Shown here: positions 4,499 through 41,217 of the stretch, in pieces
Position numbering within the stretch: position 1 is the first letter of the stretch
Layout: each line of letters starts with the position of its first letter
Source: Escherichia phage vB_Eco_AMO_3701M
Sequence record: PQ474795.1
DNA length: 45,294 nucleotides
Reading direction: 5' to 3' (one strand)
Translations under genes and position numbers: made by a program
Notes under the pieces: model-generated
The model's database searches: none
Told to the model about the DNA's origin: nothing
The model's input: the letters and a program-made list of their open reading frames with translations, nothing else

Positions 4499-4532
4499 TT
4501 GATGTAATGAATAGTACCCTATTATATTGGTG
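4499..4532 (+). promoter_or_regulatory. sigma70-like promoter (TTGATG-N18-TATATT) containing dyad AATAG-N4-CTATT
   Basis: -35 at 4499-4504, -10 at 4523-4528; 24-bp element gaatagtaccctattatattggtg repeated at 6259 and 16027; lies between divergent genes. Confidence 0.5.
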
Positions 4533-4583
4533 TCTGCAAATATTATTTTTATGCGTTACACTGGCGATACTACAGGAGGACCT

Positions 4584-5631
4584 ATGAGCTTACTTACATC
4601 ACTAATCAGCCACCAGATATGGCTACAACGCACCGCATCCGGTGAGGTGAAAGACCTTGCGCCGTTTCTCCAGGAAATGCGGGACGAAATCAAACGGCAG
4701 GTGCTGTTATTCGGCGATGACGGGCGAAGCACTGCACGACTGAATAAACTGTTACGCGACCTCGAAGAAGCACTGACCGGGCTTACAGGCGACTGGCAAA
4801 CAAAGCTTACAGAAGACCTCAAGGAACTGGCGGCGTATGAGGCTGAGTGGAACGTAAAGACACTGACCACCAACGTAAACGCGGAATTTGTTACACCTAC
4901 CGCTGAACAGGTGTGGGCCGCTGCCGAGTTTTGGCCTCTGTCGCTAAGTGACAAGCCGGTCGACTTCACTAAGCTGATGGAAGGCTGGGGGGAAACAGAA
5001 GTATCGCGCCTCGTAACTGGTGTTAAGATGGGCTTTGTACAAGGCCAAACCACACGGCAGATTGTTAAGAATGTCGTAGGCGCTGGCGGGCTGGCGGACA
5101 TCTCTGAACGCAACGCCGCTACGGTAATCCGCACCGCGCTGTCTCACGTGTCCAACGAAGCACGTAACGAGACGTACCGCCAGAACGACGACATCATCGA
5201 GAAATATGAATGGGTGTCAACTCTGGACAGCCGTACCAGCACCATTTGCAGGGCCAGAGACGGAATGACGTGGGAAATTGGTAAAGGGCCGATGCCGCCG
5301 GCCCATCCTAATTGCTTTACTTGGGGTACTGTAGTATTAATCAGTTCCGAGTTCGACTTCCTCGATAAAGGAGCGAAACGCGCGGCTAAGGGCGCAGAAG
5401 GAGGAACTCAGGTAAGCGCAGACACAACCTATTACGAGTTCCTGAAACAACAACCTGCATGGTTTCTAGGATGAGGCGCTTGGTCCTGTGCGCGGTAAGA
5501 TTTTCCGTAACAGCGGTATATCGCCGGAAGAGTTTCGCGTAATATCTGTAGATGGTTTCGGGAATCCGCTCACGCTTAAGCAGATGGCGGAACTCGATAA
5601 ACGTGTTGCTGATTATCTGAAAGGGGAATAA
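4584..5631 (+). CDS. head morphogenesis protein, MuF / SPP1 gp7 family (frame change near 5465)
   Basis: GGAGGA RBS before ATG 4584; signature LDSRTSTICRARDG...PPAHPNC; C-terminal 42 codons continue in frame 1 to TAA 5629-5631. Confidence 0.85.
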
Positions 5632-5671
5632 TGATGGGCTTTTTAAAGTAACCGATGTACCGTCGCGCCGC

Positions 5672-6091
5672 GTGGTCCAGTACGCCCGTGTGTCTGGCTC
5701 CGGTGAGAACGTGGTGTCTATTGAAGATGAAAGTGTACTCGGTACACCAGTAGACGATATGCCGTTTGCAGATAAAACAGGTATTGCGCTACCAGCGGCC
5801 GGTATGCTTTACGAGATTCCATATCTGGCAGACGCTGGTGATGTGTATTTCTCAGTGCAACCGCAGGACGTTGAACTGGCAGATGGCAGCGCGACCATCA
5901 CTGCCGAAGTTAAGGCTGGCAAAGCGCCGTATGTGCTGACCTGGTACAAAGATGGTAAGGAAGTGGTAAACGCCCCGGAAGAGGCCCTGTCTCTGATGGT
6001 TAATTCTGTTGGAGAATACTTCGTTAAAGTTACCGATGCCGATGGTGTAGAGGCGGTTAGCAAAGCGGCGAAGGTCACTAAACCAGAATGA
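5672..6091 (+). CDS. Ig-like domain protein (possible capsid decoration); start may be ATG 5631 with a frame change in a T/A run
   Basis: C-terminal Ig-like segment PYVLTWYKDGKEV...EYFVKVTDADG; strong RBS precedes ATG 5631 in another frame. Confidence 0.6.
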   Translation: MVQYARVSGSGENVVSIEDESVLGTPVDDMPFADKTGIALPAAGMLYEIPYLADAGDVYFSVQPQDVELADGSATITAEVKAGKAPYVLTWYKDGKEVVNAPEEALSLMVNSVGEYFVKVTDADGVEAVSKAAKVTKPE

Positions 6092-6094
6092 TGA

Positions 6095-6122
6095 AAGGCC
6101 CCATTACGGGGCCTTATTTTTC
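6095..6122. terminator. rho-independent terminator
   Basis: stem aggcccc / ggggcct, loop attac, then ATTTTTC. Confidence 0.55.
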
Positions 6123-6258
6123 ATCAAAGTTCACCATTCCCGCTGACTCTGCGTCCTCGACCCGCGCTAACAGCCCACACAAACAATCCTAAATTAACCA
6201 GTAACACAAATGAAATTGCGTACCATCAGTAACTTCACCTCCACTATCACGTTTTACT

Positions 6259-6282
6259 GAATAGTACCCTATTATATTGGTG
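6259..6282 (+). promoter_or_regulatory. conserved dyad-containing promoter element (copy 2)
   Basis: Identical 24-mer to 4509-4532; dyad AATAG 6260-6264 / CTATT 6269-6273; -35 is weak. Confidence 0.45.
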
Positions 6283-6342
6283 TGCGCAAACTATTTGTTT
6301 ACGTATTCCGGTTATTCCACTCGAATTGTAAATGTTGGAATA

Positions 6343-6358
6343 AACTATTCGAATAGTT
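6343..6358. promoter_or_regulatory. perfect 16-bp palindrome AACTATTCGAATAGTT abutting a -35 hexamer
   Basis: Everted arrangement of the same half-site (CTATTC/GAATAG) used in the genome-wide dyad. Confidence 0.5.
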
Positions 6359-6385
6359 GACTTTTCACCAAAAATGTGCTAAGCT
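6357..6385 (+). promoter_or_regulatory. strong sigma70-like promoter TTGACT-N17-TAAGCT with TGn extended -10
   Basis: -35 at 6357-6362, -10 at 6380-6385 preceded by TGC; no ORF of any size follows for about 200 nt. Confidence 0.55.
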
Positions 6386-6391
6386 CCACCT

Positions 6392-6590
6392 GAGCTTGTG
6401 AAGTATGAACAAGCGACCGCGGCGTGGCAGGTAACGGAGCCGGACGTTAAGTCCGAGTGTAGTTACGCTGACGCGTTCGGAAGGGCCATACTCTATTGCT
6501 TGTGTAAAAAGTAACTGGGTTTACTGAGATTACGCCGTTTCTATGTTTAAATGATAAGGGCTAGCGCCCCGCTTTATGGCGGGGCTTTAC
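6392..6590 (+). ncRNA. putative non-coding transcript (promoter-to-terminator unit without ORF)
   Basis: Between promoter 6357-6385 and hairpin 6566-6586; only a weak 38-codon GTG frame with no SD; speculative. Confidence 0.2.
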
Positions 6591-6592
6591 TT
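6566..6592 (+). terminator. terminator-like hairpin
   Basis: stem gccccgc / gcggggc, loop tttatg, then TTTACTT (short U-tract). Confidence 0.4.
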
Positions 6593-6609
6593 ATCGAGAA
6601 AGGAGAAAC

Positions 6610-39736: not shown

Positions 39737-39847
39737 ATGATGCTCGTGCCGACGACTCTGAGGGAGGTTGCCGTGAATAATTACCCGTTTATTTTAATTG
39801 TCAGCGCCGTTTATGCGGTGCACGCGTTGTGGGGGTTGGTATGGTAG
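39737..39847 (+). CDS. small hydrophobic peptide (24-36 aa)
   Basis: GAGGGAGG 5 nt before GTG 39773; helix FILIVSAVYAVHALWGLVW. Confidence 0.3.
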   Translation: MMLVPTTLREVAVNNYPFILIVSAVYAVHALWGLVW

Positions 39848-40044
39848 CCGCGGGATATGCTGTACATCTCTATTGTGATTGCGATGAGTGTAATTCAAAA
39901 CAATGGAGTATGCCGGACTCAGGGGAGTATACCGGGGAAACGTGGTCCGAGTGTGCAAGGCAAGCAAGGTCCGACGGTTGGGTGATAAGCAAAGACAGAA
40001 CACGGTGCTATGCCCCTGGGCACAATGTTAGACGCAGGAGTTGA
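39841..40044 (+). CDS. Cys-rich small protein
   Basis: ATG 39841; HLYCDCDEC plus further Cys; ORF track 39829..40044. Confidence 0.5.
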   Translation: MVAAGYAVHLYCDCDECNSKQWSMPDSGEYTGETWSECARQARSDGWVISKDRTRCYAPGHNVRRRS

Positions 40045-40047
40045 GTT

Positions 40048-40239
40048 ATGAAAAATTATGATGCGACTAAGTTTGACCAGGCGTTACTAATTAACAAGTT
40101 CTATGAAAGATACCCTTTGTCTGAGTTTAAAACAGATTCTGAAAGAGCCGAAGCACTTGGATATTTTATGGCTGGCGCCGAGTTGCAAAGGCTTGGAGAT
40201 TTCATAGTGTACCCTGACTTAGAAGACGATGAGGACTAA
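40048..40239 (+). CDS. small acidic protein
   Basis: 63 aa ending EDDED; GCAGGAG RBS. Confidence 0.55.
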   Translation: MKNYDATKFDQALLINKFYERYPLSEFKTDSERAEALGYFMAGAELQRLGDFIVYPDLEDDED

Positions 40240-40242
40240 GTT

Positions 40243-40434
40243 ATGAGAATTCGTATAACAGAGGTGAACAGTTTTCAACCCGCACACTATGGTGACCATC
40301 CCCTATACCATTTTGGCGTGGCCGTCGGGGATGAGTTTGAGGTTGTAGATGTGCATGGGTACGGGTTTATCGTCGAAACTGATGATGGACCGTTATTCAT
40401 TAGACGTGGTGAATGTGAAGTTCTGGAGGACTAA
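40243..40434 (+). CDS. small acidic protein
   Basis: 63 aa; junction GAGGACTAAGTTATGAGA repeated at the next gene start. Confidence 0.55.
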   Translation: MRIRITEVNSFQPAHYGDHPLYHFGVAVGDEFEVVDVHGYGFIVETDDGPLFIRRGECEVLED

Positions 40435-40437
40435 GTT

Positions 40438-40581
40438 ATGAGAGAAGCATTCGAACGGTGGGCTGTCGTCGAGGGTCTGCCGGTTAACAAAGGTTCAAAG
40501 AAAGAGTACCTGAACGTTAAGACGCGTCTAGCGTGGCGGGCGTGGAAAGCTGGTGTGCAAGCTGTGATGAATACGAGGTGA
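40438..40581 (+). CDS. hypothetical protein (47 aa)
   Basis: Same repeated junction/RBS as previous gene; below track cutoff. Confidence 0.45.
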   Translation: MREAFERWAVVEGLPVNKGSKKEYLNVKTRLAWRAWKAGVQAVMNTR

Positions 40582-40584
40582 GAT

Positions 40585-40785
40585 ATGGGTAAGTGGATTA
40601 AGTGCAGTGAGCAGATGCCCGCTCCTTTCTCTCATGTACTTGTGACTGATGGGGGAGAGGTTGAGATTAAATGGTTCGATGATGATTCGGATGAGTGGGA
40701 TAGTTGGGATGAATTCAACTCTGTCATAGACAACGAGGATATAACGCACTGGAGGAAATTGCCTAAACCGCCGAAACTGGTGTAA
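40585..40785 (+). CDS. DUF551-like small protein
   Basis: MGKWIKCSEQMP...VLVTDGG...W..LP pattern typical of phage DUF551. Confidence 0.55.
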   Translation: MGKWIKCSEQMPAPFSHVLVTDGGEVEIKWFDDDSDEWDSWDEFNSVIDNEDITHWRKLPKPPKLV

Positions 40786-40920
40786 CAGGTCAATAGGTTA
40801 CTATTTGACTGAGTGACTTACGCTGCTACACAGCAGCGTACAACTTTAGATTAGTGTCGTCAAAAAGCGACACTTTCACCGAACGCAACAATAGAAGCGA
40901 TTATTGCAGGAGATGCAACA

Positions 40921-41151
40921 ATGAAACTAACGAAACGACAGGCAGAGACCCTACGGGAAATAGCGAACGGCAGAACTATGCTCATGGGCAGGTTCGACCG
41001 TTACTGGTGGCAAGATTCTGATGAGTTATGCACTATGGTCGCCAGACGCCTCCGTAGTAAAGGGCTTATAAGAACCGTGTACCTCAATGCTGCTCGTGAT
41101 GTGGTTCAGATAACCGGAGCGGGTGAAAGCGAGTTACTAAAACACCAATAA
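40921..41151 (+). CDS. hypothetical protein
   Basis: 76 aa; GCAGGAG RBS. Confidence 0.55.
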   Translation: MKLTKRQAETLREIANGRTMLMGRFDRYWWQDSDELCTMVARRLRSKGLIRTVYLNAARDVVQITGAGESELLKHQ

Positions 41152-41158
41152 AATTTAC

Positions 41159-41187
41159 TTGCACACTGAGATAGAATAGACTACTAT
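41159..41187 (+). promoter_or_regulatory. promoter TTGCAC-N17-TACTAT overlapped by dyad AATAG-N4-CTATT
   Basis: -35 at 41159-41164, -10 at 41182-41187; dyad at 41175-41188. Confidence 0.45.
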
Positions 41188-41217
41188 TCATTTACACAAA
41201 CGAGAGGGAGACAGAAG

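Follow-up and report, generated by a model that had tools for sequence, protein, structure and literature searches.

A 14-base palindrome, AATAG-N4-CTATT, is present at nearly all predicted promoters of the E. coli phage vB_Eco_AMO_3701M, raising the question of what it does there and which protein, if any, would read it. The phage is a virulent Kagunavirus (Guernseyvirinae) and a near-match to GenBank Escherichia phage M01; we analysed a 45,294-nt stretch of its DNA (PQ474795.1; hereafter the window). A pattern search of the window returned 9 exact dyads, starting at 4510, 6260, 16028, 28743, 32382, 35559, 39047, 40792 and 41175. The first-pass annotation had placed eight of these correctly and overlooked the copy at 40792-40805 (AATAGGTTACTATT). 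The enrichment that it proposed was confirmed by dinucleotide-preserving shuffles (n=100), which gave a mean of 0.04 exact dyads and a maximum of 1, with 0 of 100 reaching 9. Allowing up to one mismatch yielded 13 matches against 1.18 expected, 12 of them on promoter-like sequence. Beyond the exact set, these matches comprise 35603 (the degenerate copy already on the first list), 6352 and 44378, all on predicted promoters, and 24635, which lies within the tailspike gene and is probably a chance match. When all dyads with 5-nt arms and gaps of 0-8 were compared, AATAG-N4-CTATT was by far the commonest in the window. The window and GenBank M01 differ at 3204 positions, with zero substitutions within any of ten dyad 14-mers. 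The motif itself is real and strongly conserved.

It is also already known, as two genome papers list the same sequence at orthologous positions. In the Kagunavirus fBC-Eco01, PHIRE identified seven 'phage RNAP promoters' with the consensus tgAATAGTa-ccTATTat-T (PMC9825357), and in the Jerseyvirus SGP-C a 'phage-specific regulatory element', TAATAGTACCCTATTATGTT (PMC8790156). These papers list the repeat only, noting no dyad symmetry, variable register or candidate binder, and one credits a phage RNA polymerase, although such a polymerase is not encoded in these phages.

The sites, with promoters that are predicted only, as consensus matches, and the two candidate reader genes are as follows.

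4510..4523, no strand assigned: exact dyad AATAGTACCCTATT, part of the 24-mer TGAATAGTACCCTATTATATTGG; over the -10 TACTAT (4516-4511) of a minus-strand promoter, TTGCAG(4539-4534)-N17, toward ORF 4194..4475(-), and also over plus-strand TTGATG(4499)-N18-TATATT(4523-4528) toward the head-morphogenesis gene 4584..5474.
6260..6273, no strand assigned: exact dyad in a 24-mer identical to that at 4510; minus-strand TTGCGC-N17-TACTAT promoter without a gene downstream; TATTAT/TATATT side pointing at plus-strand spanin, scaffold and capsid genes.
6352..6365, plus strand: one-mismatch dyad AATAGTTGACTTTT over the -35 TTGACT (6357-6362) of TTGACT-N17-TAAGCT.
16028..16041, no strand assigned: exact dyad in the 24-mer shared with 4510 and 6260; over the -10 of minus-strand TTGCAC(16057-16052)-N17-TACTAT toward 15674..16000(-); opposite side toward tail genes from 16165(+).
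28743..28756, minus strand: exact dyad in the spacer (-25..-12) of TTGACG(28766-28761)-N17-TATAGT(28743-28738), a promoter for 28513..28704(-) and helicase genes; inside the 3' end of ORF 28735..29133(-), a resolvase in K1H and Jersey.
32382..32395, minus strand: exact dyad in the spacer of TTGACA(32405-32400)-N17-TATAGT(32382-32377), a promoter for the Enc34-type ssDNA-binding protein 31689..32315(-) and DNA polymerase.
35559..35572, minus strand: exact dyad in the spacer of TTGACA(35582-35577)-N17-TATAGT(35559-35554), a promoter for a leftward operon (first gene 35391..35540(-)), divergent from the XRE gene.
35603..35616, plus strand: one-mismatch dyad AATATGGTACTATT over the -10 TACTAT (35610-35615) of the XRE gene's own promoter.
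35647..35862, plus strand: XRE/HTH_3 protein, 71 aa, a 434-Cro homologue and the favoured dyad reader.
38410..38580, minus strand: HTH_17 (AlpA/excisionase-like) protein, 56 aa, the rival candidate reader.
39047..39060, plus strand: exact dyad over the -10 TACTAT (39054-39059) of TTGCAC(39031-39036)-N17, a promoter for small rightward early genes from 39094.
40792..40805, plus strand: exact dyad, intergenic; TACTAT present, no convincing -35; followed by a conserved hairpin, ACGCTGCT-N4-AGCAGCGT.
41175..41188, plus strand: exact dyad over the -10 TACTAT (41182-41187) of TTGCAC(41159-41164)-N17, a promoter for 41218..41754(+).
44378..44391, plus strand: one-mismatch dyad ACTAGTTGACTATT over the -35 TTGACT (44383-44388) of TTGACT-N18-TATATT.

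Two statements about this layout did not survive: copies are not all intergenic, as 28743 falls in the last codons of ORF 28735..29133(-), and the 24-mers do not all lie between divergent genes, since 6260 has plus-strand genes on both sides. The three TTGACA/G-N17-TATAGT promoters are the top sigma-70 matches within their half of the window; the TTGCAC-N17-TACTAT class scores 8/12, under the scan threshold. At 4510, 6260 and 16028 the late-gene-facing strand has no good -35, just the -10-like TATTAT/TATATT; PVP-SE2 has an annotated promoter in the late-gene direction at the place orthologous to 6260. The 6352 dyad is conserved in K1H, at 4580, and the 44378 dyad in K1H, Jersey (annotated promoter 42343..42371) and PVP-SE2.

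The position of the dyad relative to the promoter varies over at least four registers (-25..-12, -22..-9, -19..-6, or over the -35). Its distance to the -35 is 4, 5, 7 or 10 nt where the two do not overlap, and it is seen in both orientations relative to transcription, so the earlier observation that register differs between promoter classes holds. Across 43 distinct sequences of the orthologous SSB promoter, conservation of the arms is at least 90%, while the central three bases are free to vary; insertions at this promoter lie between the -35 and the dyad, none inside it. Arms conserved across two genera around a variable centre are the hallmark of an operator for a dimeric protein, not of an RNA polymerase contact. 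This sequence pattern supports the original proposal that the dyad behaves as an independent protein-binding site and not as a fixed contact of RNA polymerase.

The conservation in related phages to which the first-pass annotation had looked is borne out, the dyad being kept in Kagunavirus and Jerseyvirus. Exact dyads number 7 in K1H, 4 in Jersey and 3 in PVP-SE2, and every Kaguna- or Jersey-type IMG/VR locus has 2-7 per ~20 kb. At ±8, the bases flanking the dyad are T/T at every Jersey-type XRE locus and G/T at every Kaguna-type one. Other lineages carry variants: AATA-N6-TATT is present 7 times in L060 (~0.1 expected), L054/64/65 have 3-4 copies, and L056/L061 have a different dyad, TTAGC-N2-GCTAA, which shares the core TAG-N4-CTA with AATAG-N4-CTATT and has a degenerate copy upstream of that lineage's XRE gene. 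No exact dyads were found in Cornellvirus or SenTO17; Cornellvirus-type phages have no genome-wide dyad, just pseudo-dyads ATTAS-N4-GTATW in two promoters beside the XRE gene.

The first-pass annotation had named the XRE and HTH_17 proteins as possible readers, and the comparative evidence speaks for the former and makes the latter less likely. XRE has an HTH_3 domain (Pfam E 1.2e-12), and of the PDB structures it matches that of 434 Cro best, a protein likewise of 71 aa (E 4.9e-7, residues 6-68). In Klebsiella phage RCIP0098 the annotated Cro is a lambdoid homologue with 45% identity and adjoins 434-type operators; 434 operators are 14 bp, ACAA-N6-TTGT. The XRE gene sits between a perfect dyad (35559) and the degenerate dyad of its own promoter (35603), a layout kept in the Kaguna and Jersey types. 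No recognisable DNA-binding protein other than XRE is common to every lineage with promoter dyads, and ten further small proteins that we scanned contained no other DNA-binding domain. The recognition helix of XRE is essentially invariant inside each genus, in concordance with the dyad flanks at ±8, which are likewise uniform within the Kaguna and Jersey types. On this evidence we give roughly even chances to the reading that AATAG-N4-CTATT is the operator of a small dimeric phage protein, most probably the 71-aa 434-Cro-like XRE; XRE as the reader, dimeric binding and repression are each things that we infer.

Some findings run contrary to XRE. The recognition helices SQGAINQL (Kaguna) and SQSLITHL (Jersey) have four differences, yet the ten arm bases are identical, and Cornellvirus-type XRE has a Jersey-like helix, yet the genome-wide dyad is absent there. 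The exact palindrome and its spread to many promoters track the phyletic gain of HTH_17 and two small unknown proteins. A repressor on the putative late-operon heads (4510, 6260, 16028) would also fit poorly, except if upstream transcription reads through into the late genes.

HTH_17 (AlpA/excisionase/MerR-like) might itself be the reader, as an early protein repressing or remodelling the dyad promoters, though we consider this unlikely. The window protein shares 85-87% identity with its Jersey/PVP-SE2 counterparts, compared with ~51% for XRE, which fits an identical dyad in both genera. Its 442 phage records, with identities of 60% or more throughout, come from Guernseyvirinae alone, and it is missing from Cornellvirus and SenTO17, both without exact dyads. 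By gene order it corresponds to K1B4_008; a Kagunavirus RNA-seq time course (PMC12645636) placed that gene and only three others in the 'early' class. Its own promoter, TTGATT-N17-TATACT (38641-38613), is free of dyads. HTH_17 is nonetheless less likely because in L026, a Kaguna-type contig carrying 6 exact dyads over 20 kb, unrelated genes take the place of the HTH_17 segment; L060, L054/64/65 and L056/61 likewise have related promoter dyads and no HTH_17 by profile search. Four helix variants (TRRTLNNW, two sharing TRQTINNW, and S[PT]MTLNRW) co-occur with the same dyad and flanks, and TRRTLNNW is found with both flank types. It also counts against HTH_17 that small HTH_17/Xis-like proteins are typically direct-repeat binders without the MerR dimerisation helix, and the promoter spacers are 17 nt rather than the 19-20 nt of MerR-activated promoters.

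We regard as improbable the view, implied by the PHIRE labels of promoter and regulatory element, that the motif is a phage-specific promoter element read by a phage RNA polymerase or a phage-redirected host polymerase. An AATAG-like block ~5 nt upstream of the -10 does persist in lineages with a broken palindrome, such as L060 (AATAG-N4-GTATTAT), and the three identical 24-mers point at late operons without a -35. But M01, K1H, Jersey, PVP-SE2 and SP-031 have no annotated RNA polymerase or sigma factor, and their large ORFs are all otherwise assigned. The element's register and orientation relative to the -35 and -10 are not fixed, the three strongest sites lie in the spacer of near-consensus sigma-70 promoters where an extra element is unneeded, and known polymerase or sigma contacts do not have the symmetry of a palindrome with a free centre.

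Just as improbable, in our estimate, is that there is no dedicated binder. On this view, compact divergent promoters would set two -10-like hexamers back to back, TATTAT on one strand and TACTAT on the opposite one, the palindrome would arise incidentally from this arrangement, and promoter duplication would have spread it around the genome. The CTATT arm is inherently -10-like, the dyads at 4510, 16028, 39047 and 35559/35603 lie between divergent genes with one such hexamer per arm and direction, and the identity of the three 24-mers suggests duplication. Yet the unidirectional promoters at 28743, 32382 and 41175 keep the full dyad, with a second arm (AACTAT or GCTATT) that is no -10 and no gene on that side. 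The inner G/C of the arms and the exact N4, irrelevant to a -10, are conserved in two genera and ~50 loci, and another lineage has a second, different palindrome at the same promoter position.

A host (Escherichia/Salmonella) transcription factor exploited by the phage is a very improbable reader of the dyad: E. coli and Salmonella phages use the same dyad and lineages probably infecting other hosts a different one, but Cornellvirus and SenTO17 infect Salmonella like Jerseyvirus yet lack it, the between-genus flank difference follows phage XRE type, and we know of no enterobacterial regulator with this consensus.

The motif fits a well-known kind of regulation, and an operator read by XRE has close parallels in phage 434, whose Cro is the best solved homologue of this 71-aa HTH_3 protein. 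The 434 operators OR1-3 and OL1-3 and the related P22 Cro/C2 operators are also 14-bp sites whose centre is free between conserved outer arms, lie over promoters, and place a perfect and a weaker site on either side of the regulator gene between divergent promoters. Unlike 434 and P22, the phage here has no CI partner and no integrase, and no prophage copies were found in 5,426 E. coli genomes. Its arm is AATAG rather than ACAA, binding is predicted from sequence, and single sites lie over ~12 promoters genome-wide instead of in two tripartite operator clusters. Lambda Cro similarly turns down PL and PR late in lytic growth, a small early/middle repressor occluding promoters that include its own, whereas the putative targets here are nearly every promoter of a strictly virulent phage, structural operon heads included. 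In the lytic Bacillus phage phi29, which uses host polymerase, one small phage protein, p4, also times transcription through inverted-repeat sites that overlap several promoters (the early/late switch at A2b, A2c and A3); p4 differs in that it is not HTH_3, acts with p6, and both represses and activates.

In the mechanism we propose, each XRE monomer would read one AATAG arm via the major groove, leaving the four central bases uncontacted. The likeness of the CTATT arm to a -10 hexamer may have led operators to evolve as one with host sigma-70 promoters, in several registers: the three near-consensus leftward replication promoters have the dyad in their spacer, the weaker TTGCAC-N17-TACTAT promoters have it over the -10, and two more have it over the -35. 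As the operators overlap promoter elements, bound protein would exclude RNA polymerase. XRE would be expressed from a weak promoter with only a degenerate dyad, and its rising level would lower transcription from most phage promoters first, reaching the XRE promoter last. We hypothesize that one regulator acts over all promoters, which would be, in a phage without CI and without lysogeny, a genome-wide analogue of the way in which Cro turns down early transcription.

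The dyad AATAG-N4-CTATT, a 14-base palindrome, occurred nine times as an exact match in the window, compared to a mean of 0.04 and a maximum of 1 in shuffled sequence, confirming that its occurrence is real and far above chance. The enrichment claimed in the first-pass annotation was thus borne out and its eight coordinates were all correct, with one exact copy, at 40792, overlooked. Allowing one mismatch added 35603, which had already been named, as well as 6352, 44378 and 24635, the last of which is likely a chance match. Among 5+5 dyads with a gap of 0–8 in the window, none came near this frequency except G+C-rich terminator stems. 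The dyad is conserved in related phages: exact copies were found in K1H (seven), Jersey (four) and PVP-SE2 (three), and all of the Kaguna- and Jersey-type loci in a sample of 64 IMG/VR loci, fetched around the gene for a single-stranded DNA-binding protein (SSB), carried 2–7 dyads per ~20 kb. The sites, named by start coordinate, and the genes discussed below are as follows.

4510, 6260 and 16028: exact dyads in identical 24-mers, with TTGCAC-N17-TACTAT promoters on the minus strand
39047 and 41175 (exact) and 35603 (one mismatch): dyads in TTGCAC-N17-TACTAT promoters
28743, 32382 and 35559: exact dyads in the spacer of TTGAC(A/G)-N17-TATAGT promoters; 32382 is the SSB promoter
6352 and 44378: one-mismatch dyads overlapping a TTGACT -35
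31689..32315, minus strand: SSB gene
35647..35862, plus strand: XRE, a 71-aa HTH_3 protein
38410..38580, minus strand: HTH_17, a 56-aa AlpA/excisionase-like protein
4165-4184, 6095-6115, 13415-13434, 25926-25945 and 31651-31670: hairpins AAGGCCCC-N4-GGGGCCTT

By megablast, the window belongs to the genus Kagunavirus (Guernseyvirinae), and its top match was Escherichia phage M01 (OR061069.1), which is identical in length and coordinates. The two differ by 3204 substitutions and no indels, patchily spread (0–248 per kb) and rich in transitions; all of these differences leave the dyads untouched. The M01 annotation is broken up by frameshifts, with the DNA polymerase in six pieces and the helicase, terminase and capsid genes also split, which points to frameshift errors or reference-guided assembly. 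We therefore used the RefSeq annotations of K1H and Jersey as gene guides. Plus-strand genes run from 39094 to the record end and then through 1-13410 (small early genes, lysis, packaging, head), with tail genes at 16165-25920; minus-strand blocks occupy 13439-16000 and 25949-39038, the latter containing the replication genes. The interval 38600-39040 is mostly non-coding, with a weakly conserved ORF (38751..39038) and a strong hairpin at 38928-38948. The near-identical G+C-rich hairpins listed above lie at the ends of gene blocks and are conserved in Jersey, K1H and the Cornellvirus SP-031; as several carry T-runs on both strands, the hairpins probably terminate transcription in both directions. 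Another hairpin, ACGCTGCT-N4-AGCAGCGT, closely follows the 40792 dyad on its downstream side (40820-40839) and recurs beside a degenerate copy in both Jersey (39668) and PVP-SE2 (4081).

Read as 5'-TGAATAGTnnnCTATTAT-3', a dyad site consists of one 'TGAATAGT' half and one 'ATAATAG' half. Every site but 24635 overlaps predicted sigma-70-like hexamers, and four arrangements were seen. The dyad lies at -25..-12 in the TTGAC(A/G)-N17-TATAGT promoters, which outscore every other sigma-70 match in that half of the genome, at -19..-6 in the TTGCAC-N17-TACTAT promoters, and at -22..-9 in the TTGCAT-N17-TATTAT promoters of Jersey, PVP-SE2 and the IMG/VR contig L060; at 6352 and 44378, both kept in K1H, Jersey and PVP-SE2, it covers the -35. 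At the SSB promoter, the natural 1-nt insertions occupy the stretch that separates the -35 from the dyad. From the four arrangements and these insertions, the register is therefore not fixed (the -35-to-dyad offset is 4, 5, 7 or 10 nt, or the two overlap), and the CTATT arm either doubles as the -10 or abuts it. Promoter spacers are 17 nt, occasionally 18, and not the over-long 19–20 bp of MerR-type regulators. Two positional claims of the first-pass annotation needed correction: not every copy is intergenic, as the 28743 dyad sits in the 3' end of a resolvase ORF, and the 24-mer does not always separate divergent genes, as both genes flanking 6260 are on the plus strand.

We compared 43 distinct sequences of orthologous SSB promoters. 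The ten arm bases were 90–100% conserved, as were the -35 and -10, and three inner bases of the N4 were freely variable, as would be expected if a protein contacted the site with two-fold symmetry and left its centre untouched. The earlier proposal of a protein operator within promoters is thus well supported by comparative evidence; we infer both the identity of its reader, for which we favour XRE, and the sign of regulation. Downstream of the SSB promoter, between it and the start codon, lies a conserved leader hairpin, TCCGGG-N5-CCCGGA (32330-32365, minus strand, -9.8 kcal/mol). Across 69 loci its stem takes four forms that differ by compensatory changes (CCGGG/CCCGG, CTCGG/CCGAG, CCCGG/CCGGG, CCCAG/CTGGG), counted directly since MAFFT alignments left the variable loop out of register. 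These changes suggest a functional RNA element, for example a translational operator.

The only recognisable DNA-binding proteins of the phage were XRE and HTH_17, and ten further small proteins had no Pfam DNA-binding domain. A 'transcriptional regulator' annotated in M01 (14475..14753) proved to be the C-terminal fragment of a frameshift-split DNA-repair exonuclease, intact in K1H as gp19. XRE matched Pfam HTH_3 (E 1.2e-12), and its best solved homologue in the PDB was 434 Cro, which is also 71 aa and aligned over nearly the full length (E 4.9e-7). The 434 operators are 14 bp long with conserved outer bases, a geometry like that of the dyad. In a lambdoid Klebsiella phage, a homologue at 45% identity carries the annotation Cro and is encoded beside ACAA-N6-TTGT operators. 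The dyad system resembles a 434/P22-type Cro–operator pair in having a ~70-aa HTH_3 protein, a symmetric 14–18 bp site with a variable centre, sites overlapping the -35 or -10 of predicted promoters, and sites beside the regulator gene, including its own promoter. The perfect dyad at 35559 and the one-mismatch dyad at 35603 lie <90 bp upstream of the XRE gene in a conserved arrangement, and in every lineage examined the two promoters flanking this gene carry a dyad-like pair, A[AT]TA[GCT]-N4-[CG]TAT[TA]. The XRE recognition helix is nearly invariant inside each genus, and the flank at ±8 tracks XRE type, being T/T in all Jersey-type loci and G/T in all Kaguna-type loci. Two observations count against XRE: it is only ~51% identical between genera, with four recognition-helix residues changed and the arms unchanged, and Cornell-type phages have a Jersey-like helix but no genome-wide dyad. 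Weighing these sequence comparisons, our confidence that XRE reads the dyad is evenly balanced.

The rival candidate, HTH_17, was favoured at first, in a comparison of four genomes: it is 85–87% identical between dyad-sharing genera and is missing from SenTO17 and SP-031, both of which lack the dyad. The wider survey of 64 loci reversed this preference. The Kaguna-type contig L026 (IMG/VR 3300045988_014597) has six exact dyads but no HTH_17, the corresponding segment having been replaced by unrelated genes, so that the sites occur without this regulator. The replacement spans 4070-5025, equivalent to 38186-38991 of the window, with the dyads kept; the new genes encode a 47-aa CxxC...CxxC protein and a 149-aa protein without a Pfam match. 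Related promoter dyads are also present in lineages where a profile search found no HTH_17: L060 has seven copies of AATA-N6-TATT compared to ~0.1 expected, and L054, L064 and L065 have three or four related dyads. A related, G+C-richer lineage without HTH_17 (L056 and L061; IMG/VR 3300049846_000738 and 3300005066_000002) carries another palindrome with a common TAG-N4-CTA core, in three exact copies per contig:

L056, 762, 2702 and 9928: TTAGC-N2-GCTAA, 12 bp, in the spacer or -10 of promoters
L061, 346, 2236 and 9928: the same palindrome, similarly placed

A one-mismatch copy lies just upstream of the XRE gene in this lineage, and the palindrome represents a naturally occurring change of specificity in the same system. 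Moreover, four variants of the HTH_17 recognition helix exist alongside one identical site. We consider it unlikely that HTH_17 reads the dyad. The conserved promoter of HTH_17 itself (TTGATT-N17-TATACT) is dyad-free, and no solved homologue of HTH_17 was found below E 0.4. Antitermination of the AlpA type was rejected: the Pseudomonas AlpA that loads at a spacer element is a Q-like protein, which contacts DNA through positions 128-142 and, as a monomer, recognises an asymmetric site of 6 bp (PMC9371919). The 56-aa HTH_17 has no relation to it.

A protein on the dyad, in whichever of these positions, should keep RNA polymerase out; repression would therefore be the default reading. In the predicted promoter of XRE itself the -35 is the weakest and the dyad contains a mismatch, features that would fit late autoregulation. 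In the literature we found a single experimental mapping of transcription in these phages, a coarsely sampled Kagunavirus RNA-seq time course, and no TSS or binding data. There, gene 004, labelled 'specific DNA binding' and adjacent to the AAA helicase-primase, is classed as 'middle' and gene 008 (HTH) is among four 'early' genes (PMC12645636); we infer that these are XRE, by gene order, and HTH_17, respectively. The SGP-C paper took the XRE and HTH_17 genes as grounds for calling such phages temperate (PMC8790156). However, a search of 5,426 complete E. coli genomes gave no match to window 31600-39100, and the annotations of the relatives K1H and Jersey include neither a CI nor an integrase, which argues for a lytic-cycle circuit and not an immunity region. 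Whereas a 434/P22-type pair sits in an immunity region with CI and lysogeny functions, the dyad system lacks these and is Cro-like without being an immunity switch.

Repression alone leaves the three 24-mers to be considered. Their TATTAT/TATATT side faces the head, capsid and tail operons, and the late-facing strand has no good -35, bar a 9/12 match at 4499-4528; at 6260, the predicted promoter on the opposite strand has no gene to serve. Either transcription from upstream continues into the late genes, or the 24-mers act as late promoters that depend on a factor. The latter possibility underlies a reading of the dyad as a two-way switch: bound to the palindrome, one small phage protein would silence strong early and middle promoters on one strand and, at the 24-mers, enable the -35-less TATTAT/TATATT late promoters on the other; we regard this as unlikely. 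A second palindrome, GGAATAA-N1-3-TTATTCC, precedes the spanin, scaffold and capsid genes. It is kept even in Cornell-type phages without the AATAG dyad and may be a separate late-region regulatory site:

window, 6338-6352 and 7124-7136
K1H (L004), 4566 and 5349
SenTO17 (L005), 395, 648 and 1278
SP-031 (L007), 25438, 26069 and 26596

Symmetric bidirectional sigma-70 promoters would account for the TACTAT/TATTAT sites, which do have a -10-like hexamer on both strands, but TAnnnT on both strands fails at 28743, 32382 and 35559 (second arm GCTATT or AACTAT), and at 28743 and 32382 the second-arm side is without a gene. The motif has been published before, as seven 'phage RNAP promoters' in fBC-Eco01 (consensus tgAATAGTa-ccTATTat-T), the same sequences at orthologous positions (PMC9825357), and as a 'phage-specific regulatory element', TAATAGTACCCTATTATGTT, in SGP-C (PMC8790156). 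Both motifs are output of the PHIRE repeat finder, and the two papers are silent on symmetry, on register and on any protein that might bind (PMC9825357, PMC8790156). The polymerase label is unfounded because the annotations of M01, K1H, Jersey, PVP-SE2 and SP-031 contain neither an RNA polymerase nor a sigma factor, and their large ORFs are all otherwise assigned; nor does the element show the single orientation and fixed register of such a promoter, being palindromic and variably offset from the -35. A hairpin role in RNA or DNA was dismissed, as the dyad folds with only -1.4 to -2.3 kcal/mol and lies mostly upstream of the predicted start.

The motif was therefore already published, though mislabelled, and the mechanism is of the familiar Cro–operator kind. 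Our analysis sets right the 'phage RNAP promoter' label, an error that recurs in annotations, and argues that a 'repressor' gene sometimes read as a sign of a temperate phage is a lytic-cycle Cro-like regulator. If the two-way switch were true, one Cro-like protein would suffice for a full early-to-late programme in a virulent siphophage that encodes neither a polymerase nor a sigma factor. Guernseyvirinae such as Kagunavirus and Jerseyvirus are siphophages very often isolated for therapy and biocontrol of E. coli and Salmonella, and have also been proposed as small synthetic-biology chassis. With one palindrome on nearly all promoters and two candidate readers, the timing of gene expression without a phage polymerase is open to simple experiments, and the palindrome would offer engineers a handle to switch a whole phage genome on or off.
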